Source: Candidatus Kerfeldbacteria bacterium
GTDB lineage: Bacteria; Patescibacteriota; Patescibacteriia; SBBC01; CAIJZX01
Direction of reading: 5' to 3'
DNA: 64,000 bases
Assembly (NCBI GenBank): GCA_963731735.1
Contig: CAVSWO010000002.1
Coordinates: 470,001 to 534,000 of the forward strand
Shown: positions 36,220 through 58,133 of the stretch, piece after piece
Position numbering within the stretch: position 1 is the first letter of the stretch
Layout of the letters: every line of letters begins with the position of its first letter
Notes under the pieces: generated by a model
Told to the model about the DNA's origin: nothing
Database searches by the model: none
What the model saw: the letters and a program-made list of their open reading frames with translations, nothing else
Translations under genes and position numbers: made by a program

Positions 36220-38583
36220 CAGGATGTTTTTGTTAACAACATTTTTTGTGGGCGGATTGGCTGTGCTGGCGGCTCTTATCATACCGTTGACGGTAACGAT
36301 CGAACCACCCCGATTTCAAGCTGAGTAATGGCAAATACACGATCACAGCGGGGGATTTTGTCATTGTTAATGATGATGGCAGCGGTTGAAGCTGTGTATA
36401 AGGTTGCGGGGTTGGCGCACGACATTACGATTGATGGAAATTTCAAAACAATCACTACGCAAGGCAAAGCGGCGGTAGAGATCGGAGATTTCGATGACGG
36501 CGCTGCATACGTGACGCTAAGAATCTTAATTACACGGAGGCGTCTCAACTACGGCGATAAAGTCAATCATATTACTTGAAAATCTAAGCGTAATAGCATT
36601 AATCTCGGGCAGCGATGATGATATTGTGCGAGACAATATCGTTGGTGGCGGTGGCATCAGGTTACAACGGAGACATTGACGGCTTTTGGCCTTCGGACGC
36701 AGGTGATGAACAATGTGTGACGGGCGGCGCGAACGTAAAACTTTGTTTGAAGTGGTGATGGGAAAGTGCACATGTCTCGGACGGACACGGTGTAACGGCA
36801 ATACTTCACGATGATCGCAATGATCGCACAGAAGCACGGCGCAGTTGTATTCGCTGCGCACGCATGTTACGTTTACGATAATAACATCTGGTGGACGAGT
36901 AACATTGGATTGTACATGCGGGATGAGGCGATGACGGACTGTACGAAAACAATACTTTCGTAGCATAATCAAGAGCTTATCCGCATAGCATCGGGAGAAT
37001 GCCCGACAAAACCTTCCCAGCACGCAACCGCTTTCATAATAACATCTTTCAGTCCGATTTTTCACAGGCAACCTTTTTCCAGGGGATGGGTTCCAACAAC
37101 CAATTACGACAACACTTTTTGGGGTGGGGATCGGGGAACGTTGTTACAAAACGATGGCAACATGTACGATCACAACACGTTTTATCTGACGGGTGGTGGA
37201 GTGATGGATATGGATTATGAAAAGGAAACGCCGGACACCTGGACCAATAATATATTTAGCTATGCGTCTGGGAATGTTTTTGACCTACAAGATTGGACTT
37301 TCGGCTGGTACACCGGGGATTACAATTTGTTCTTCAATCGATCCGGAAACGTGACGTTTGATGGTTACGCCTCCTTAAGCGCCTGGCGAACAGCCAGCGG
37401 TAATCAGGACGACGTCGATTCAATTGAGGCCGATCCGCAATTCAACAACCCGAGTTTAGGAGATTTTACCATTCCGATTACTTCGCCAGCTCATCAAGCC
37501 GCCTCAGACGGATCCGATATTGGAGCCTGGCCATATGGGAGCACTCCGCCGCCTCCGCCGCCACCACCAGAGTGTACAGAAAACTGGCAATGCGATAACT
37601 GGAGCACGTGTGTGGATGGCCAGCAATCCCGGACATGTACCGATTTGAATAACTGCGGTACAACTGTCAACCAACCCCCGCTAACTCGAAAAGCTGTACC
37701 GGAAGCTGCACGGAAAATTGGGACTGTACCGACTGGAGCCTTTGTCTGAATAACCAGCAATCCCGGACATGTACCGATTTGAATAATTGCGGTACAACGC
37801 TTAATCGACTCCACTGACCCAAAGCTGTTCGTCATGCTCGGAAATCTGGCGATGCGGCGACTGGACGAATTGCCAAAACGGCCAGCAATCCCGGACTTGT
37901 TACATGCGAATCTTTGTGGCACATCCGTCACGCGGCCAGCCTTGACCCAATCTTGCGTCGATACGTCGTTGTCTTGTGCGCTGTCTGATCTGTCGTGCTA
38001 CAGCTGCGCGACCAACTGGTCGGACGACAGCACCAATCACAACCGAATCCTGGCGCCGAGCGGGGGATCACGACCAGGTGGTGTCTGCCTAAGTACCGTT
38101 TCAAGGCCGGCGTTGTGCGATGGCACAAACGCGATTGAGGACGTGACGCTCAGTGCGGGCAGCCTGAGCTATGGTCAGTCACTGACCGTGTCGGTCGATT
38201 ATGCCTGCTACAAAGACTCCAGCCATAATGCCGACGATCTGACGCTGTGGTATTTTAATGGCTCGGCTTGGAAAAAATTAAAAACCTGGACGTCCGCTTC
38301 CGGTAATCTTCCGGGCTGCAGTTCGGCGCCGCCCACCTGGCCATCTCCGTTGATCTCACCGTTGCCAGTCAGTGCCAAGAGCGGTACCGTCAGCTGGACC
38401 TTCACGCCCGATCGCGTAAAGGGAACGCACTACGTTCGGGCGTTCGAAGATTCGACCGGCGCGTCCTCGGGTGACACACCTTGTCCGACCACCATGAGCT
38501 GGGGCAATATCGATGACCATGGATTTACCGTCACGAACAGTGGCGGTGGCGGAGGGGGGCCTAGAAAAATCCCAACCGAATAA
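36220..38583 (+). pseudogene. frameshift-fragmented gene for a large secreted right-handed beta-helix protein with Cys-rich repeats and a C-terminal domain (or uncorrected sequencing errors)
   Basis: The pieces sit in three different frames. There is a signal-anchor ORF (MFLLTTFFVGGLAVLAALIIPLTV, 36220-36327). Beta-helix-like peptides follow (ISGSDDDIVRDNIVGGGG; NRFHNNIFQSD; ...ADPQFNNPSLGDFTIPITSPAHQAASDGSDIGAWPYG). Then a Pro8 linker and three Cys-rich repeats (C[TS]E[NI]W.C..W..C..GQQSRTC...), each in a different frame. A 249-aa C-terminal ORF (37834..38583) closes the gene. At least four frameshifts in total. Confidence 0.5.
37573..37960 (+). repeat. three tandem direct repeats (periods about 134 and 128 bp) encoding the Cys-rich motif
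   Basis: The core cagcaatcccggacatgtaccgatttgaataa(c/t)tgcggtacaac occurs at 37621 and 37755. A diverged copy lies at 37883. The repeat periods are not multiples of 3, so the frame slips at each unit. Confidence 0.6.
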
Positions 38584-40279: not shown

Positions 40280-40354
40280 TCCCAGGTAGCTCAATGGTAG
40301 AGCAGCGCGCTGTTAACGCGTTGGTTGTCGGTTCGAGTCCGACCCTGGGAGCCA
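40280..40354 (+). tRNA. tRNA-Asn (anticodon GTT)
   Basis: TCCCAGGTAGCTCAATGGTAGAGCAGCGCGCTGTTAACGCGTTGGTTGTCGGTTCGAGTCCGACCCTGGGAGCCA folds as a cloverleaf with anticodon loop CTGTTAA. CCA is encoded. Flanked by the inverted repeat ggctcatga / tcatgagcc, which extends the acceptor stem. Confidence 0.85.
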
Positions 40355-49543: not shown

Positions 49544-49643
49544 GCGTCCTCCATGGAAGCGAAAGGAGCGATTGAGAATAGGCGAATCCTACGGTGCCGG
49601 TCCGGAACCGTCAAGTTGACTTCAGGGCGGGGAGCGCGTACAC

Positions 49644-49670
49644 TTGGTATAATATTGAGACTGATTCTCA
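49644..49670 (+). promoter_or_regulatory. extended -10 promoter (TGgTATAAT) plus a 5-5-5 palindrome TGAGActgatTCTCA between the -10 and the fur-family start
   Basis: tggtataat lies at about 49644-49652. The palindrome is at about 49655-49669, immediately before the ATG. A candidate autoregulatory Fur-family box. Coordinates are +/-1. Confidence 0.4.
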
Positions 49671-49673
49671 CTA

Positions 49674-50081
49674 ATGCCTGATCGACGTCACACCCGCCAG
49701 CGCCAAATTATCCTGATGACCGTCAAAACAGCGGCCGACGGCATATCCGCCGACCAGGTTTTCAAGCGAGTCAAAAAAATCCTGCCAGCCATCGGCCGGG
49801 CGACCATTTATCGTAATCTCGAAGGATTAGTCGAGCGCGGTGAGCTCTATCGTTTTGAAAGCGAGGCCGGAACCCGGCAATATTTTGGACACACCTTCCA
49901 TCACGTTCGTTTTCGGTGCCAACGTTGCGGACGTGAACAACAACTGCCGGATCAGGTACCCGGCCGCTATCTGGCCATGAAAATTTTCACCCAACAAACT
50001 GTCTTTTTATCACGTCTCACTGCCCAGGGGCTGTGTGCCGCCTGCACCCGGGCGGTCCGGAAACAAGGAGTCACACTATGA
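49674..50081 (+). CDS. Fur-family metalloregulator (Fur/Zur/PerR)
   Basis: TRQRQIIL...ISADQVFKRV...IGRATIYRNLEGLVERGEL is the winged-HTH block. The C-terminal metal site is HTFHHVRFRCQRCGREQQL...CAAC. Heads the suf operon. Confidence 0.75.
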   Translation: MPDRRHTRQRQIILMTVKTAADGISADQVFKRVKKILPAIGRATIYRNLEGLVERGELYRFESEAGTRQYFGHTFHHVRFRCQRCGREQQLPDQVPGRYLAMKIFTQQTVFLSRLTAQGLCAACTRAVRKQGVTL

Positions 50082-50533
50082 CTAAAGGAGTGCTCGTCTA
50101 TTTAATTCGTGGATCGCACGTGCTGCTGGCCATGAAAAAACGTGGCTTCGGTCAGGGCAAGTGGAACGGGCCAGGCGGAAAAATTGAATTCGGTGAAAAC
50201 GCGCTCCATGCCGCGGTACGCGAAACGCAGGAGGAAATTGGCACTCGGCCGGTCCTGGAACATCCGATCGGTACGATCTTGTATCACGATGAACGGTATG
50301 GGAATTGGCACGTTACGGTCTTCCGAACCGAAGAATTCAGCGGCGATATTCTCGAAACCGAAGAAATGAAACCCCAATGGTTTCGCATGGACGAATTACC
50401 GTACGAGGAAATGTGGGCCGGTGATAAGGAATGGTTGCCATTCGTGCTGATGAACCGACACTTCGAAGGAGAAATTTGGTTTGACCGGTTTAACAACATA
50501 TCGAAAAAGGATATCAAGGAGGTGCGGGGATGA
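50078..50533 (+). CDS. Nudix hydrolase (MutT/8-oxo-dGTPase-like)
   Basis: GKWNGPGGKIEFGENALHAAVRETQEEIG Nudix box. AGGAG SD. Its start overlaps the fur stop. Confidence 0.7.
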   Translation: MTKGVLVYLIRGSHVLLAMKKRGFGQGKWNGPGGKIEFGENALHAAVRETQEEIGTRPVLEHPIGTILYHDERYGNWHVTVFRTEEFSGDILETEEMKPQWFRMDELPYEEMWAGDKEWLPFVLMNRHFEGEIWFDRFNNISKKDIKEVRG

Positions 50534-51258
50534 CCCAGCTCGATATCCGGGAATTATCTGTCCAAGTCGCGGGGAAGCAAATCCTTGATCACCTGAATCT
50601 TTCGGTTCCGGCCGGCCAAGTTCACGCCATCATGGGCCCGAACGGCTCGGGAAAATCCACCTTGGCGGCGGCCCTGATGGGCCACCCGAAATATACCGTC
50701 ACCGACGGAAAAGTTACGTATCACGATCAGGATCTACTGGCACTGTCTCCGGATGAACGGGCCAAGCTCGGAATCTTTCTGTCATTTCAGTATCCGCAGG
50801 AAATTTCCGGTGTCAGCTTAGGGAATTTTTTACGGACCGCGCTGAATAATCATCGTCAGCAGCCGATTGGGGTCCCGGAATTTTTTGATTTGTTAAAGCA
50901 AAAAACTGACGCCATGGGTATGCGTGAAGATTTCATTACCCGCGGTGTGAACGAAGGGTTTTCCGGCGGTGAAAAAAAACGGGCCGAGATTTTACAGATG
51001 ATGGTATTGCAACCCTCGATTTGCATTTTGGATGAAACTGATTCCGGACTCGATATTGATGCTTTGAAAGTCGTGGCCAACGGCGTCAACTCGATGCGTT
51101 CGCCGGATCGCGGTTTTTTGATCATTACGCACTACCAGCGGTTACTTGATTACGTCCAGCCGGATGTGGTGCATGTGCTGGTGGGCGGGAAGATTGTCAG
51201 AACTGGCGGTCCGGAATTGGCCAAGGAGCTGGAAAAGACTGGATACGCTCCCGCATGA
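50530..51258 (+). CDS. sufC: Fe-S cluster assembly ATPase SufC
   Basis: [25 protein letters not shown]...[12 protein letters not shown]...[14 protein letters not shown]. 242 aa. Confidence 0.95.
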
Positions 51259-52664
51259 CCCAAAAAGCTCACCAGGCCACGCAATCACTCGATACCTACC
51301 AACACGGATTTTCGTATCCCGAGGAATCGGTCTTTAAAGTTCGCCGAGGCTTGTCGCTGGACGTCGTTCGCCAGATTTCGCAGCACAAGCGCGAACCGCA
51401 GTGGATGTTGGAAAAACGGCTTCGCGCCCTCCAAACCTTTACCGAGAAACCGATGCCGCAATGGGGCGCGAATTTGAACGATATTTTATTCAACGACATT
51501 TATTACTATCTTAAGCCGGTTGAGAAACAGGGACGAACATGGGATGACGTTCCCGACTCGATGAAAAAAACCTTTGACCGGCTGGGTATTCCTGATGCGG
51601 AAAAGAAATATCTGGCCGGCGTCGGGGCGCAATACGATAGTGAAGTAATTTATCACAGCGTCAAGGAAAGCCTGCGCAAGCAGGGGGTTATTTTTACCGA
51701 CATGGATACCGCCTTGCGCGAATATCCGGAAATCGTTAAACAGTATTTCGGAACGCTAATCCCGGCCCACGATAATAAATTCGCGGCCCTCAACAGCGCG
51801 GTTTGGTCCGGCGGATCATTTGTCTACGTACCCAAGGGCGTGAAAGTCGAGATGCCGCTCCAAGCCTATTTCCGCATTAACGCGCGCAACATGGGCCAAT
51901 TTGAACGCACGTTAATTATCGCCGAAGAAGGCAGTCAGGTCCATTATGTTGAAGGCTGCACCGCGCCGGTCTATGCCAGCGATTCGCTCCATGCGGCGGT
52001 GGTTGAAATCTTCGTGAAAAAAGGCGCGCGCGTCCGCTACACAACGATTCAGAATTGGTCGCGCGATGTTTATAACCTTGTCACCAAGCGGGCCCAAGTT
52101 CAGGAAGAAGGGGTAATGGAATGGATTGACGGCAATCTCGGATCGCGGGTAACCATGAAATACCCGAGCGTCTACCTGATTGGCCGAAAAGCGCATGGGG
52201 AAGTGCTTTCGATCGCCTTTGCGGGCAAGGGGCAACATCAAGATGCCGGCGGAAAAGCCATTCATAACGCACCGGAAACGTCATCGATTATCACGTCCAA
52301 ATCAATCTCCAAAGACGGCGGACGCACGTCGTACCGCGGTTTAGTGCAAATGTCCCCGGCTGCCAAGAAAGCCAAGTGCAATGTCCGCTGTGACGCGTTG
52401 ATTCTTGATGAATTTTCCCGTTCGGACACGTACCCGACCATGAAAATCCGAGCCAAGGATGTAACCCTCGGCCATGAAGCAACAGTTTCAAAGGTTGGGG
52501 AAGAGCAGTTATTTTACCTGATGTCCCGCGGGCTTAATGAAGCCGAGGCAACTGGGTTAATTGTCAGTGGATTTATTGAACCAATCGTGAAAGAGCTGCC
52601 ACTTGAATATGCGGTGGAGTTAAATAAGTTAATTCAATTGGAGATGGAAGGGAGTGTGGGATGA
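51255..52664 (+). CDS. sufB: Fe-S cluster assembly protein SufB
   Basis: 469 aa. The C-terminal beta-helix block ...[35 protein letters not shown] is typical of SufB. Confidence 0.95.
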
Positions 52665-53140
52665 TGTCTGACAGCAAAGAAGTCGCTTGGAAAAAAACAT
52701 TGCCAAAGAAAAGAATGGCAGCTGGAGCGTTGTTTTTCAATACGAATAAGGAAATTCTGGTGGTTGTTCCGAAATACGGTTCTACATGGGAAATCCCAGG
52801 TGGTGTTATCGAGGCGAATGAGTCGCCTAGGCAAGCTTGTGTACGTGAAATTCGGGAAGAACTAGGGATCAGCGTTGAAATAAGAAAAATTCTATGTGTC
52901 GATTATCGAGCGGTTAGCCTAGATCATCCTGATGAGAGTATCCAATTTGTGTTTTTTGGTGGGACGTTGAGCAATAATCAAATACAGGAAATCAAGGTGG
53001 GTGAAAGAGAAATTTTGGAAACTCATTGGATTACGACAGAGCAGATAAAGAACAAAATTAGTAATCCCGCGCTGGCAAGCAGGATCTTGGCGGCTGTGGA
53101 AGCATACAAGTCGAAAACGTGTCTGTATTTGGAAAGCTAA
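52661..53140 (+). CDS. Nudix hydrolase, low-GC insertion inside the suf operon
   Basis: Nudix box [24 protein letters not shown]. About 42% GC compared with about 57% in the flanks. Sits where the sufD 5' half is expected. Confidence 0.65.
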
Positions 53141-53191
53141 CTTAATGATGTACAGCCAAGATTACAATTTTGGTATAGCAAATACTTCACT

Positions 53192-53812
53192 ATGTTCAGC
53201 ATGACGAACTCTCAAAAAACTATCGACACCCTCACCGAACCCGCCAAGCGGATTGAAGTTCAGGCCGGACAGAAACTGCACTACATTGTGCCGATCTTGG
53301 AATCAATTCCCGAACCGCGGCAACGTGAAATCGTCCTCGCCGGTGAAGGCGCCGAGGCGGAAGTGATTGGCCTATTTCTTGGTCGTGGGAAAAGTCAGTT
53401 GAATCTAACGATTGATACGACGCACACGGCCCCGCATACGCGCGGATCGACGCTGTTTAAGGCCGTGCTGTTCGACTCCAGCCATCTTGAATTCAACGGC
53501 ATGATTAAAATCCTGAAGGGCGCGCAGGGGAGTAACGATTTTCTTGAGCAGAATTCACTTTTGATGTCCGAAGACGCGAAAGCCAACGCTGTTCCGGGCC
53601 TGGAAATCGAGGCTAATGACGTCAAAGCCTCGCATGGCGCGTCCGCCGGTCCGGTCGATCCCGAGCAGAAATTCTACTTGATGTCCCGCGGGTTGTCCGA
53701 AGACCAAGCCGAGCGTATGATTGTACAAGGGTTTATCGCGCCGATTCTCAAAGCGATTCGTGATGATACTTTAAAGGACAAGATACTCCATGCCCTCAAT
53801 CCAGAATTGTAA
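53192..53812 (+). CDS. sufD: SufD-like protein, short (C-terminal half only)
   Basis: 206 aa. ...[54 protein letters not shown] is paralogous to the SufB/SufD C-terminal beta-helix. The usual N-terminal half of about 200 aa is absent. Confidence 0.6.
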   Translation: MFSMTNSQKTIDTLTEPAKRIEVQAGQKLHYIVPILESIPEPRQREIVLAGEGAEAEVIGLFLGRGKSQLNLTIDTTHTAPHTRGSTLFKAVLFDSSHLEFNGMIKILKGAQGSNDFLEQNSLLMSEDAKANAVPGLEIEANDVKASHGASAGPVDPEQKFYLMSRGLSEDQAERMIVQGFIAPILKAIRDDTLKDKILHALNPEL

Positions 53813-55031
53813 AAACGATTTCCCTGTTTTCAAGGCTCATTCGGAGCTGATCTATTTAGATTCCACCGCCTCGAGTTTAAAACCACAGGCGGTGATTGAC
53901 GCGGTCAAGCACTATTATGAAACGTGCGGGGTGAACGTCCATCGCGGGGTGTACGGATTGTCGGTGGACGCCACCAATGCTTACGAGGGCGCCCGGGAAA
54001 ACGTTCGGAAGTTTATCAACGCGAAAAGTACGAAAGAAATTGTGTTCGTTCGCGGTGCGACTGAGGCGATTAACCTGGTGGCGAGTACGTACGGACAGAC
54101 GTTTCGGAAAGGCGATGTGATTCTCCTGTCGGAAATGGAACACCACGCCAACATTGTGCCGTGGCAAGCGTTAGCGCAGTGGATTGGCGTCGAACTGCGC
54201 TGGATTCCGGTCACAAAAGATGGCGATCTTGATCTGTCGAATATCGATGCATTGCTCAAGGGAGTGAAATTGCTCGCGATCACCCAAATGTCGAATGTGC
54301 TGGGGGTGGTGAATGATGTCAAAATACTGGCCCAGCAAGCACACGCGGTGGGCGCAAAAATATTGGTGGACGCGGCGCAGTCGGTTCCGCATATGCCGGT
54401 GGATGTGCAAGATATGGATTGCGATTTCCTGGTCTTCTCCGGACACAAAATGCTCGGGCCGACGGGGATTGGCGTGTTGTATGCAAAAGAAGATCTGTTG
54501 GAACACATGCCGCCCTACCAACGGGGCGGGGATATGATTCTTGAGGTGACGAAAGACACAGCTACCTGGAACGAACTGCCCTATAAATTTGAAGCCGGCA
54601 CGCCGAATATTGCCGGCGCGATCGGCTTGGGCGCGGCCGTGGAGTATCTCAGCGGCTTAGGAATGGAGCATGTTTGGGAGCATGAAGTCGAGTTGGCCAC
54701 CTATGGATTAGTCGCATTGCAGAAACTTGAAGGCGTCACAGTCCTTGGCGGAAACGCAAAATCTCCGCGCGGAGCGATCTTCGCGCTTGATCTGGGGAAT
54801 ATTCATCCCGTTAGAGGCGGAGCCTCTAACGGGATTCACCCGCATGATATCGGTTCGATTCTGGATGAACAACATATCGCGGTCCGAGCCGGACATCACT
54901 GCGCCCAGCCGCTGCATACGAAGTTTGGTTTAGTCGCGACGTCGCGGGCCAGCGGCTATGTCTACACAACCAAAGAAGATATTGATGCGTTGGTGCAAGG
55001 CATTAAAAAAGTGCAGGAGATGTTCGCGTGA
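53790..55031 (+). CDS. sufS: cysteine desulfurase SufS (class V aminotransferase)
   Basis: SGHKMLGPTGIGVLY PLP-lysine loop. ...RAGHHCAQPLHTKFG carries the active-site Cys region. 413 aa. Confidence 0.9.
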   Translation: MPSIQNCKNDFPVFKAHSELIYLDSTASSLKPQAVIDAVKHYYETCGVNVHRGVYGLSVDATNAYEGARENVRKFINAKSTKEIVFVRGATEAINLVASTYGQTFRKGDVILLSEMEHHANIVPWQALAQWIGVELRWIPVTKDGDLDLSNIDALLKGVKLLAITQMSNVLGVVNDVKILAQQAHAVGAKILVDAAQSVPHMPVDVQDMDCDFLVFSGHKMLGPTGIGVLYAKEDLLEHMPPYQRGGDMILEVTKDTATWNELPYKFEAGTPNIAGAIGLGAAVEYLSGLGMEHVWEHEVELATYGLVALQKLEGVTVLGGNAKSPRGAIFALDLGNIHPVRGGASNGIHPHDIGSILDEQHIAVRAGHHCAQPLHTKFGLVATSRASGYVYTTKEDIDALVQGIKKVQEMFA

Positions 55032-55546
55032 TTGGTTTGAAGAGAGGGATAGTGAAACTGGAATCTCACCAAGCCGGCTGGTCAAAACTTTTTCAAACGG
55101 AAAAGCATCGACTTCAAAAAGCCATTCCCGCTATTGTGTCGATTGAACATGTTGGTAGCACAGCTGTGCCTGGATTGAAAGCGAAACCAATCATTGATAT
55201 TGATCTTGGTGTAAAGTCGTTAAAAAAATTCAGACGCGAAATTCCCAAAATGAAAAAACTTGGGTATTGGTGGAAACGTGATTATCCTGGAAGCAGACAA
55301 CATTTATTTTTCGCCAAAGGGCCAGAAAAGTCAAGATCAATATACATTCACGTCGTTCGTTATCAGGGTCCGAAGTGGCAACGAGATATCTTTTTTCGTG
55401 ATCAGTTGGTTCGGAACCCATCTTTGCGACGGCGCTATGAGGCAATAAAAAAACTTCTGGCAAAACGTTATCCATCAGATCGTGAACAGTATACGAGTCG
55501 CAAACAACCATTTATTTTCCAAGTGTTAAATAAGAAACGCCCATGA
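55028..55546 (+). CDS. grpB: GrpB-family protein (UPF0157), low-GC insertion inside the suf operon
   Basis: SIEHVGSTAVPGLKAKPIIDIDLGV is the GrpB signature. GTG start. About 42% GC. Confidence 0.7.
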   Translation: MIGLKRGIVKLESHQAGWSKLFQTEKHRLQKAIPAIVSIEHVGSTAVPGLKAKPIIDIDLGVKSLKKFRREIPKMKKLGYWWKRDYPGSRQHLFFAKGPEKSRSIYIHVVRYQGPKWQRDIFFRDQLVRNPSLRRRYEAIKKLLAKRYPSDREQYTSRKQPFIFQVLNKKRP

Positions 55547-55914
55547 CCCTCGACATGTACCAGCAGAATATCATGGATCACTATAAGCACCCGCGGAATT
55601 TTGGGGAGATTCAAGGTGCAGAAAACCACGCCCATGCGGCCAACCCGCTGTGTGGCGACGAACTGGATTTTTACTTAGTCTTCGATGACCAAGACAAGGT
55701 GGCGGAAGTGAAATTCTCCGGCCGCGGCTGTACGATCACTATGGCGAGCGCTTCGATGCTCTCGGAAAAATTACGGGGTATGCCAAAAAGTCAGGTTGAA
55801 AAACTGACGAACGAAGATGCACTACAATTACTTGGGGTCGACATAAATCCAGCCAGGATGAAATGCGCAACGCTCAGTCTGGAGACCGTCCAGCAGGCGA
55901 TTGGTCATCATTGA
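55543..55914 (+). CDS. sufU: SufU/IscU-like Fe-S scaffold / sulfur-transfer protein
   Basis: NPLCGDELDF...GRGCTITMASASML...MKCATLS gives the three conserved Cys of NifU-N/SufU. Confidence 0.85.
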   Translation: MTLDMYQQNIMDHYKHPRNFGEIQGAENHAHAANPLCGDELDFYLVFDDQDKVAEVKFSGRGCTITMASASMLSEKLRGMPKSQVEKLTNEDALQLLGVDINPARMKCATLSLETVQQAIGHH

Positions 55915-55943: not shown

Positions 55944-56528
55944 CTAGGGGAGTAGTTTCAGGACGTTCCACCAGGCCTTGATGTAATCAGGGCGCTTGTT
56001 TTGATACTTGAGGTAATAGGCGTGTTCCCAGACGTCGAGGCCGAGAATCGGCTTATCACCATGCAGATAGGGTGAATCTTGATTTGCCATCTGGTGCAGA
56101 TGGAGCGTACCGGCTGCGTCTTCAGCCAGCCAAACCCAGCCGCTGCCGAACAAGGTCGAAGCCAATGTCGTGAATTCCTCTTTAAATCCATCAATCGATT
56201 GCCAAGTAGCATTGATCCGATCGACTAACGTCTGGTCAACGTCTTTGGTTGGACCCAGAATGTTCCAAAACAGGGAGTGATTAGCGTGGCCGCCGCCGTG
56301 GTTTTGGATTGCCCGCTTTGTCTGATCAGGAACCGACAAGGTCTGCAGCTTGATCAATAATTCTTCGACGGGCAAAGCGGCGAGTTCAGGATACGGCTCA
56401 AGCGCCGCATTTAACTTATTGATGTATGCCTGGTGATGCTTGGTATGGTGAATTTCCATGGTGCGCGCATCGATGTAGGGTTCGAGGGCATCATACCCGT
56501 AGGGGAGTTCTGGAAGTGTGTGGGGCAT
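55944..56528 (-). CDS. sodA: Fe/Mn superoxide dismutase
   Basis: [36 protein letters not shown]...DVWEHAYYL. 194 aa. Confidence 0.95.
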
Positions 56529-56630: not shown

Positions 56631-58133
56631 ATGGTACAATATTTACGAACAATGCATCGACACGTAAAGCGATTTGGTTTCCATCTGAAAAACGCTTTCG
56701 TTCCGCACGCGGGCAACGATTATCATCCGCATGCGGTCCGTTCGCATTGGCTGGGCGTCTATGCCGGCTTGATCGTGACCGTGAAAATTGTGACCGTCGC
56801 GTTTGTGGCCTTCTATTCGGGTCCGGCGCGGGTTTCGGACGTTACCGCCAGCAATATCATTCGCCTGACCAATGACGCGCGCCAGGCCAACGGCGTGGCC
56901 ACCCTGAAGACGAATTCGGCGCTGAATAGCGCCGCCGCCGCTAAGGCCAACGATATGCTGCAAGAGCAATATTTTGCGCACGTGAGTCCCAGCAACTTGA
57001 CTCCATGGTATTGGTTTAAACAAGCCGGCTATGCTTATCAATACGCCGGCGAAAACTTGGCGATTGATTATCTCGAAGCCGAAGACGTGATTAACGCCTG
57101 GCTGGCGTCGCCGTCGCACCGGGAAAACCTGTTGGCCAGTAAATATCAGGAAATCGGTGTTTCGGTAGTAACCGGGAACTTCCAGGGTGCCCAGTCGATT
57201 CTAGTGGTCCAAATGTTCGGCACGCCAACGGTCACAACCACCACCTCGGCACCGAGTTCGCCAACCCAAACGCCCACGCCGACCCAAGCCGTAGCCACCG
57301 TGGCCGGATCCGCCACGCCGGCACCGGCGCCAACTCCGACGCCCGCGCCGGTGGTCGTAACACCGCCTCCGCCGGAACCGCCGGCCACACCGACCATTGT
57401 TTCTCCCGATCCAAATTCGGTCGTCTTGACGCAATCACCGGTGATTGTCGGCCAAGCCGAAGCGGGGAGCCAAGTCACGGCCCAGGTCAATGACACAACC
57501 ATTGGCACAGCCACCACGGATAGTGACGGCGCCTATCAAATTACTCCGACCAATCCGTTGTCAGATGGTGACTACACCATTCAGGTAGTCGCGCATGCGC
57601 GCGGCTTGGACAGTACGCCGTCGAGTCGGCGGTCATTCACCGTGGATACCACGCCGCCGCAAGTAGTTGACAGCGGTACCTTTGCCTTGTTCTCAATACT
57701 CGGCCATGACACCTACGACGTGTTCGTCAAAACTTCCGACGACGCCGCCCAAGTACAATGCGCGTGCGGATCGACCGTGACCATGTTACACCGACAGGCA
57801 AATCAATTTATGGGCCACATCACGGTTGATGGAAAAAACAGCTCCTCATCGGTGCTCTCGTTGGCGGTCAGTGATGCGGCCGGGAATCAAACCAAGCTGG
57901 CCCTGGTGGATACCGACTTGTTCACGACCGGCGTCGTCGCGCCGACTGATAGTCCAGTCATTCGGGCCCTGCGCGTTTTGACCTATTCACGAACCTTCCT
58001 GACCGCCTTCCTGGTGTTTATGCTGTTGCTGGCGCTCTTCAACGTGATTATCGTTTGGGAACGACAGCACCATGCCACCGTCGTGGGCATGTTATTGGTG
58101 ATTTATCTGGCCGGCAGCTTGCTGTTGATTTAA
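56631..58133 (+). CDS. membrane-anchored CAP/SCP/PR-1 domain surface protein with Pro/Thr linker and Ig-like domains
   Basis: N-terminal TM (WLGVYAGLIVTVKIVTVAFVAF). The CAP domain reads ...QEQYFAHVSPSNL...AGENLAIDY...WLASPSHRENLL...EIGVSVV. A PTPAPAPTPTPAPVVVTPPPPEPP linker follows, then Big-like repeats, then a C-terminal TM helix. Confidence 0.6.
   Translation: MVQYLRTMHRHVKRFGFHLKNAFVPHAGNDYHPHAVRSHWLGVYAGLIVTVKIVTVAFVAFYSGPARVSDVTASNIIRLTNDARQANGVATLKTNSALNSAAAAKANDMLQEQYFAHVSPSNLTPWYWFKQAGYAYQYAGENLAIDYLEAEDVINAWLASPSHRENLLASKYQEIGVSVVTGNFQGAQSILVVQMFGTPTVTTTTSAPSSPTQTPTPTQAVATVAGSATPAPAPTPTPAPVVVTPPPPEPPATPTIVSPDPNSVVLTQSPVIVGQAEAGSQVTAQVNDTTIGTATTDSDGAYQITPTNPLSDGDYTIQVVAHARGLDSTPSSRRSFTVDTTPPQVVDSGTFALFSILGHDTYDVFVKTSDDAAQVQCACGSTVTMLHRQANQFMGHITVDGKNSSSSVLSLAVSDAAGNQTKLALVDTDLFTTGVVAPTDSPVIRALRVLTYSRTFLTAFLVFMLLLALFNVIIVWERQHHATVVGMLLVIYLAGSLLLI

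Follow-up and report, generated by a model that had tools for sequence, protein, structure and literature searches.

On a contig of a Candidatus Kerfeldbacteria bacterium (CAVSWO010000002.1, positions 470,001 to 534,000; we call this whole 64,000-nt stretch the window and give coordinates as positions in it), genes of other families are embedded in a suf operon for Fe-S assembly. The core genes sufC, sufB, sufD, sufS and sufU are accompanied by two Nudix hydrolase genes, Nudix1 and Nudix2, and by grpB, which encodes a GrpB/UPF0157 protein; the encoded SufD has only about half the usual length. Assigning the open reading frames (ORFs) with Pfam profiles and, in addition, NCBIfam models gave the following order of features.

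49674–50081, + strand: gene of a Fur-family (PerR-like) regulator, first of the array (Pfam FUR, 52 bits)
50078–50533, + strand: Nudix1, in the Fur–sufC slot (Pfam NUDIX, 65 bits; real start at 50078, within a longer ORF from 50033)
50530–51258, + strand: sufC, ABC ATPase (Pfam ABC_tran; 58–77% identity in relatives)
51255–52664, + strand: sufB, 469 aa, full length (Pfam SUFBD_core, 292 bits, and SufBD_N; 74–92% identity in relatives)
52661–53140, + strand: Nudix2, in the sufB–sufD slot (Pfam NUDIX, 68 bits)
53141–53191, + strand: AT-rich spacer of 51 bp from Nudix2 to sufD (31% GC)
53192–53812, + strand: mini-sufD, 206 aa (Pfam SUFBD_core, profile positions 95–232 only)
53790–55031, + strand: sufS, cysteine desulfurase of the class-V aminotransferases (Pfam Aminotran_5, 471 bits; TIGR01979, 547 bits, above cutoff)
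55028–55546, + strand: grpB, GrpB/UPF0157, in the sufS–sufU slot (Pfam GrpB, 161 bits)
55543–55914, + strand: sufU (Pfam NifU_N, 98 bits; TIGR01994 SufU, 107 bits, above cutoff)
55944–56528, – strand: Fe/Mn superoxide dismutase (SOD) gene, convergent (Pfam Sod_Fe_N and Sod_Fe_C)

Stop and start codons overlap at the Fur/Nudix1, sufB/Nudix2 and grpB/sufU junctions (ATGA in each case) and at sufS/grpB (GTGA), and Nudix1/sufC and sufC/sufB are joined likewise; the spacer between Nudix2 and sufD is the sole junction of the array without overlapping codons. These overlaps make co-transcription of Nudix2 and grpB with the genes for Fe-S assembly the most likely arrangement. An initial annotation had placed the Nudix2 and grpB ORFs at the coordinates listed above, with which our ORF check and the Pfam matches agree, and had pointed to the AT-rich stretch 3′ of Nudix2, measured here as the 51-bp spacer. 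Its further statement that overlapping codons bound each insert holds for sufB/Nudix2, sufS/grpB and grpB/sufU, and fails at Nudix2/sufD. Nudix1, a gene of native composition, was absent from it. Searches for internal promoters and terminators that would set the inserted genes apart returned weak consensus matches only, none flanking the inserts on the + strand, and no convincing internal terminator was found in the array; a weak sigma-70-like site lies at 49616–49644.

For comparison, related loci (L001–L013 and L080–L086) were collected by scanning GTDB species representatives and by exact-protein look-ups, and about 14 kb was examined per relative. Their core proteins are 62–79% identical to those of the window, most of them within a star-like clade at 76–79%. 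Their common backbone is Fur-(Nudix1)-sufC-sufB-[x]-sufD-[y]-sufS-[z]-sufU, after which comes the convergent SOD gene; the contents of the bracketed slots differ. The Fur-family gene, whose product has PerR models as its best NCBIfam matches (every one below cutoff), is kept upstream of suf in the relatives, and the SOD gene lies downstream in nearly all of them.

The half-length SufD

Taking as reference a full-length SufD of about 420 aa, with an N-terminal helical domain and a complete beta-helix, the window protein is indeed about half as long as expected, as had been noticed initially. It matches only the C-terminal part of SUFBD_core (profile positions 95–232 of 232; 164 bits) and has no SufBD_N match. 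Among NCBIfam models it scores 168 bits with sufD (TIGR01981), 105 with sufB and 73 with SmsB; the sufD score stays below the trusted cutoff of 222 bits, and the full-length architecture is lacking. A PDB profile match aligns it to residues 252–417 of E. coli SufD (E=1e-33), and its DVKASHGA motif aligns with the E. coli DVKCSHGAT, so that the equivalent of His360 is kept. This histidine, H148 of the short protein, is invariant in an alignment of 33 sequences; PMC5571166 describes His360 as a functional residue of E. coli SufD. An AlphaFold2 (AF2) model of the short SufD is confident (pLDDT 94) and compact, with 11 beta-strands and three C-terminal helices, and a Foldseek search with it returned SufD chains as best matches (E. 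coli SufD 1VH4: TMq 0.87, root-mean-square deviation 1.5 Å). By its C-terminal beta-helix core and C-terminal helical domain the protein is of the SufD type rather than the SufB type.

The initial annotation had suggested that insertion of the Nudix gene replaced the 5′ half of sufD. Put fully, a single recent Nudix insertion into a canonical sufCBDSU operon, with grpB arriving separately, would have deleted this half. Such a history would account for the low GC content of both genes (see below) and for a SufD that retains the C-terminal part of the profile and begins 51 bp after Nudix2. The distribution of the short form speaks against it. Among 5.8 billion proteins searched, the closest homologues, numbering more than 80 (50–77% identity), were without exception 193–252 aa long, with N-termini that line up with that of the window protein; those with a source name are annotated as Kerfeldbacteria or Patescibacteria. 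None of the 19 related loci has a full-length sufD. In three of them (L004, L007 and L084) the sufB–sufD slot is empty and sufB overlaps sufD directly by 4 nt, and SufD is still short; these overlaps also argue against short SufDs being mis-called fragments of longer genes. Conversely, a Nudix gene already occupies the slot on the deep branches L009, L010 and L011. Across 79 genome loci, a short SufD (155–260 aa) is the common form in many lineages of the candidate phyla radiation (CPR), among them Berkelbacteria, Saccharibacteria, Peregrinibacteria, Gracilibacteria, WWE3, Collierbacteria, Nomurabacteria and Komeilibacteria. Several DPANN archaea share it, and in every case its gene comes immediately behind a full-length sufB. 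The window shows no trace of a lost N-terminal half of sufD: when the N-terminal halves of full-length SufD-like proteins were compared with it, they matched sufB and nothing else. The short SufD of relatives that have no sufB–sufD insert thus refutes truncation by insertion, and we consider such a history hardly credible. The 206-aa protein is an intact, lineage-wide mini-SufD and no truncation product. Nothing relevant on short SufD in CPR bacteria was found in the literature, although the searched collection is incomplete and this absence is weak evidence. More generally, an essential gene that seems truncated beside a foreign-looking one can be in the form that is normal for its lineage.

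Taken as a whole, this is a SUF system of the SufU type in which SufD is shortened. As in the Gram-positive systems (sufCDSUB/sufCBDSU, as in Bacillus subtilis), sufC, sufB, a SufD-type paralogue, sufS and sufU are co-directional, and the window SufD aligns to its counterpart in the E. coli SufBC2D scaffold (PDB 5AWF, 2ZU0 and 1VH4). In contrast to both, SufD here lacks the N-terminal helical domain as well as the opening part of the beta-helix, Fur/PerR-like and Nudix genes stand at the head of the operon, and unrelated small genes occupy internal junctions. The SUF-like minimal system (SMS, with SmsB and SmsC) of archaea and anaerobes (PMC12442378, PMC12584684) is similar in having a reduced scaffold, made of SufC and proteins of the SufB family, and in occurring in lineages that are ancient or have small genomes. 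The window differs from it in its full-length SufB, its distinct SufD-type protein, which scores far higher with the sufD than with the SmsB model, and its SufS and SufU; since all four are present as separate proteins, we rejected identity with SMS. By analogy with E. coli, where the C-terminal helical domain of SufD binds SufC, the mini-SufD, which keeps the last turns of the beta-helix, the His360 equivalent and these helices, may pair with SufB and SufC through the end of the beta-helix and the C-terminal helices, presumably in a scaffold like SufB-SufC2-SufD.

Composition and relationships of the embedded genes

Nudix2 and grpB have GC contents of 42.1% and 41.0%, close to the 42% first reported for them; the suf genes, initially put at about 57%, measure 50.5–52.9%. 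The difference is clearer at third codon positions (GC3): 0.58–0.62 for the suf genes compared with 0.42 for Nudix2 and 0.34 for grpB, the two lowest values among 63 non-overlapping ORFs of the window (mean 0.589, standard deviation 0.062), or about 2.7 and 4.0 standard deviations below the mean. In the other 61 ORFs, many poorly conserved hypotheticals included, GC3 never falls below 0.44 and is mostly 0.5–0.66. The low GC3 of the two genes is real and beyond chance fluctuation, and their composition lies outside the host distribution, as expected for horizontally acquired genes. Nudix1, in the same operon, has a native GC3 of 0.59; therefore neither small size nor membership of the Nudix family alone gives low GC. 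The drop does not extend beyond the two ORFs; the edges of grpB are sharp, with GC3 of 0.62 in the last 40 codons of sufS, 0.34–0.40 in grpB and 0.68 in the first 40 codons of sufU. We also considered a recombination tract reaching into the flanking suf genes, and rejected it as unconvincing: GC3 does fall to 0.42 over the last 40 codons of sufB, but sufC and sufB show comparable dips at other positions, and grpB is sharply bounded.

The two next-lowest GC3 values in the window (0.44 and 0.50) belong to adjacent ORFs at 36526–37749 (181 aa on the – strand, 202 aa on the + strand), which may be spurious or a further patch of unusual composition. At 57100–57550, inside a 500-aa ORF (56631–58133), GC rises locally to about 65%, in the stretch that encodes a Pro/Thr/Ala-rich low-complexity linker (TPTPTQ...PAPAPTPTPAP).

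Nudix2 belongs clearly to the Nudix family (PF00293, 68 bits against a gathering cutoff of 21.1 bits), and the Nudix box, GX5EX7REUXEEXGU, can be read in its translation. Its best match, at 58% identity, is the same-slot gene of L080; the next matches (44–50%) are annotated as Ktedonobacterales, cyanobacteria and Streptomyces, and both of those whose context was inspected lie outside suf operons. To the same-slot Nudix proteins of other relatives Nudix2 is only 23–36% identical, compared with 44–48% to its non-suf sister proteins. In neighbour-joining (NJ) trees of these proteins of about 160 residues (200 bootstraps), window Nudix2 and its L080 orthologue were monophyletic in 90% of bootstraps and had a sister group made up solely of non-suf proteins in 72%. 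Other same-slot Nudix genes formed separate lineages, one of L001, L013 and the deep-branching L011, another of L009 and L010. Since Nudix2 is nearer to non-suf Nudix proteins than to the same-slot proteins of relatives, replacement in place is indicated: the sequence comparison suggests that Nudix2 may have taken over from a different Nudix.

Nudix1 has homologues of 40–62% identity in the same slot of most relatives, which cluster together in the NJ tree, and it is a stable member of the operon. We do not claim strict monophyly of this set, as the exact clade, although present in the point-estimate tree, was recovered in only 7 of 200 bootstraps.

A HIT gene lies directly upstream of sufD in five relatives (L001:5881-6309, L002:6600-7004, L006:6595-7005, L013:2497-2895 and L080:3276-3680). 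These genes are 43–57% identical to one another and mostly have native GC3. The 51-bp spacer of the window is a possible deletion scar of a lost HIT gene.

For GrpB, family membership is likewise clear (PF04229, 161 bits against a 25.5-bit cutoff, profile positions 2–158 of 159; PDB 2NRK, E=7e-19), and a GS...DxD pattern in its translation is taken here as a putative nucleotidyltransferase motif. The family also includes the C-terminal domain of mycobacterial CoaE (PMC2765170). The best homologues of the window GrpB reach only 45–49% identity, the named top matches being mostly Parcubacteria, Saccharimonadia, Nealsonbacteria and other CPR bacteria. Among the 18 related loci that show the sufS–sufU slot, four carry GrpB there (L003, L005, L006 and L009). 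Together with the window protein they form one weak, long-branched NJ clade, and they are 36–59% identical to one another, no closer than to outside proteins. This pattern is compatible both with old residence and losses and with slot-specific gene exchange among Kerfeldbacteria. The GC3 of four of the five suf-embedded grpB genes is 0.16–0.25 below that of the core; the fifth, in L006 (9598-10131), is at host level (0.50), which suggests that grpB has occupied this slot for different lengths of time in different lineages.

Occupants of the suf slots

Over 19 loci, the slots hold Nudix, HIT, nucleoside-deoxyribosyltransferase (NDT)-like, GIY-YIG, methyltransferase, VOC, GNAT, SET, RibD_C, GrpB and AhpC genes as well as unknown ORFs.

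sufB–sufD, Nudix alone: window, L008, L009, L010
sufB–sufD, Nudix and HIT: L001, L006, L013, L080
sufB–sufD, unknown ORF and HIT: L002
sufB–sufD, unknown 116-aa ORF, then two Nudix genes: L005
sufB–sufD, Nudix and methyltransferase: L011
sufB–sufD, NDT-like gene: L003
sufB–sufD, GIY-YIG: L081 (794-1120; precomputed Pfam)
sufB–sufD, empty: L004, L007, L084
sufD–sufS, VOC/glyoxalase: L001, L005
sufD–sufS, GNAT: L003, L011
sufD–sufS, SET: L007, L013
sufD–sufS, RibD_C: L082
sufD–sufS, unknown 249-aa ORF: L006
sufD–sufS, empty: window, L002, L008, L009, L012
sufS–sufU, GrpB: window, L003, L005, L006, L009; empty in others
Fur–sufC, Nudix1 almost everywhere, with AhpC (peroxiredoxin) in L008 and L011 and a further Nudix in L006 and L009

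Embedded ORFs tend to be poorer in GC than their hosts: in the 19 loci, 39 of 45 lie below the GC3 of the local core suf genes (median difference –0.11; Wilcoxon p=2e-8), 26 of them by more than 0.10. Relatives with a short SufD and embedded Nudix or GrpB genes at uniform GC would have indicated an ancestral arrangement. The short SufD and the embedded genes are there, the uniform GC is not, and the Nudix genes are of different lineages; the arrangement is thus neither a one-off recent insertion nor a uniform ancestral state.

Several further ORFs were seen in suf slots elsewhere. A small GIY-YIG-type ORF at L077:9886-10179 in the sufS–sufU slot was recognised by eye only; GIY-YIG nuclease-family genes in slots (L081, L077) might bear on how slots open. 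CPR lineages outside the clade also carry genes inside suf: in Peregrinibacteria an ORF of about 107 aa lies between sufD and sufS. A conserved ORF of 105–116 aa with a 'CSH/CTH' motif, which looks Rieske-like by eye, occupies the sufD–sufS slot at L024:7595-7924, L027:7595-7918, L032:7654-7971 and L044:7515-7865; L024, L027 and L044 are labelled Peregrinibacteria or Peribacteria, L032 only as Patescibacteria group. In a Patescibacteria subgroup (L059, L062, L071 and L077) the same slot holds a conserved ORF of 223–230 aa. L062, L071 and L077 also share an ORF of about 95–101 aa in sufS–sufU, with a hydrophobic N-terminus by eye, while L059 has an unrelated 96-aa ORF there.

Recurrent positions, compositionally deviant accessory genes and contents that vary between relatives are also features of genomic islands and integron cassettes. 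However, the surroundings of Nudix2 and grpB showed no integrase, transposase or recombinase gene, no tRNA target, no flanking direct repeats and no sites resembling attC: all ORFs of the array were assigned to suf, Nudix, GrpB, Fur or SOD, a search of 52300–55900 for flanking repeats or att-like sites gave short chance-level repeats only, and no tRNA or non-coding RNA target lies near the inserts, the nearest tRNAs being at 40280 and 61336. Moreover, the inserts are single genes inside an operon, where overlapping codons leave no room for recombination sites. We therefore rejected an island, transposon or integron cassette as the identity of Nudix2 and grpB. No phage-borne homologues of either were found in IMG/VR by a method that finds close relatives only. 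A role in anti-phage defence was also considered and set aside, as the two Nudix proteins hit the generic PADLOC candidate PDC-S07 with similar strength and GrpB has no match, which is uninformative.

Probable turnover at operon junctions

Our favoured explanation, to which we assign a probability of roughly 0.6, is that accessory genes are still being turned over at set junctions of a conserved operon, with newcomers taken from a gene pool of lower GC. The core suf genes would form a stable scaffold in the Kerfeldbacteria-type clade, with recurrent slots at Fur–sufC, sufC–sufB, sufB–sufD, sufD–sufS, sufS–sufU and sufU–SOD where genes of small single-domain enzymes come, go and replace one another; two of these slots would at present be occupied by Nudix2 and grpB. 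The whole array is probably one transcription unit under the Fur/PerR-like regulator, and embedded genes would be translated by coupling to suf genes, so that a newcomer could be expressed without its own promoter. Low GC would reflect arrival from a lower-GC pool, later than the divergence of host lineages; for GrpB, the nearest homologues point to other CPR bacteria as a possible source. At sufB–sufD, we infer that Nudix followed by HIT upstream of sufD was ancestral, that the lineage of the window and L080 swapped in a different Nudix, and that the window later lost HIT, leaving the AT-rich, uncoupled 51-bp junction.

Of the horizontal acquisition proposed initially, the part that stands is that Nudix2 and grpB are compositional outliers in an otherwise uniform operon and that Nudix2 is not orthologous to the occupant of its slot in most relatives; the sufD-truncating insertion falls. 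The operon comparison and phylogeny envisaged there gave a divided answer as well: a Nudix gene sits in the sufB–sufD slot of most relatives, GrpB is confined to a minority, and only for Nudix2 do the trees point to a non-suf sister group, with GrpB clustering weakly with other suf-embedded GrpBs.

Several points weigh against turnover. The single weak, long-branched GrpB clade fits old vertical residence as well as cassette exchange. The L080 orthologue of Nudix2 has low GC3 (0.34, compared with 0.57 in the core) despite deep divergence, and the L006 grpB gene is host-like; low GC could thus be a lasting property of particular genes and not a clock of recent arrival. With recombination sites, repeats, integrase and transposase all unseen, no mechanism of insertion is shown. 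The searches yielded neither a donor nor a close homologue (identity at most 49% for GrpB and 58% for Nudix2), and the databases contain no close sister genome (best core identity about 79%), so that the timing and direction of transfer are unproven. Finally, the trees are NJ trees of short proteins, and the 14 kb examined per relative do not show that turnover is higher in suf than elsewhere in these genomes.

As the main alternative, Nudix2 and grpB would be old, vertically inherited and fast-evolving genes, with low GC3 from weak selection, AT-biased drift or selection for low expression, and with patchiness from repeated loss. A Nudix gene in the sufB–sufD slot of most relatives, deep branches included, GrpB in one slot of five lineages that cluster in the NJ tree, the systematically lower GC3 of embedded genes in many relatives and the L080 orthologue all agree with such a history. 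On the other hand, the GC3 of the other 61 ORFs of the window indicates that the genomic equilibrium is not AT-rich, Nudix1 and most HIT genes keep native GC3 in the same operons, Nudix2 is nearer to non-suf proteins than to its same-slot counterparts, and sister lineages hold unrelated families in the same slots. We consider purely vertical residence rather unlikely.

The embedded enzymes could also have been recruited for function, as selected parts of a PerR/Fur regulon for oxidative stress and iron; slot content would then be adaptive tuning and not neutral turnover. Nudix and HIT proteins would clear oxidised nucleotides or Ap4A-type alarmones, and AhpC and SOD would detoxify reactive oxygen species. 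The Fur/PerR-like regulator at the head of the array and SOD at its end, AhpC/peroxiredoxin genes in the Fur–sufC slot of two relatives, retention of Nudix1 across the clade and the side-by-side recurrence of Nudix and HIT fit this idea, and the best NCBIfam matches of both Nudix proteins are MutT/8-oxo-dGTPase models. These matches fall below cutoff, however: TIGR00586 (MutT 8-oxo-dGTPase; cutoff 97.9 bits) gives 46.8 bits for Nudix2 and 36.1 for Nudix1. Thus, although both resemble MutT-like Nudix hydrolases by profile and Nudix box, all equivalog models stay below cutoff and no substrate is assigned at any curated cutoff. For SET, RibD_C, GIY-YIG, methyltransferase and GrpB, a connection with Fe-S or oxidative stress is not evident. 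Besides, tightly packed co-directional arrays could put unrelated genes side by side without a functional link. An oxidative- or iron-stress theme is plausible for the embedded genes as far as their family assignments go; selection for it as the explanation of slot content is possible but doubtful, and as to origin it is compatible with turnover at junctions. A literature search for Nudix or GrpB genes inside suf operons found nothing, which is weak evidence given the incomplete collection searched.

A bolder form of the turnover explanation, which we offer as speculation and think rather improbable as a whole, would make the suf operon an integrase-free landing pad, where genes are captured repeatedly at exact junctions and wired in by stop-start overlap, with the half-length mini-SufD a functional scaffold partner across CPR and DPANN. 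Its cargo would consist of small enzymes for nucleotide handling and stress (several Nudix lineages, HIT, GrpB, GNAT, VOC, SET and GIY-YIG), newcomers would obtain ready-made PerR/Fur-controlled expression, and lineages might exchange such genes by homologous recombination in the highly conserved suf genes on either side.

Neither the mini-SufD nor the junction lead overturns current understanding, and in CPR genomes a place in the same operon does not have to imply a functional link. Conserved across CPR and DPANN at about 200 aa, the mini-SufD would define the smallest portion of SufD that a SufBCD-type scaffold requires. The suf junctions, repeatedly hosting low-GC, coupled genes, would offer a tractable system for gene gain and expression in streamlined symbiont genomes without mobile-element machinery.

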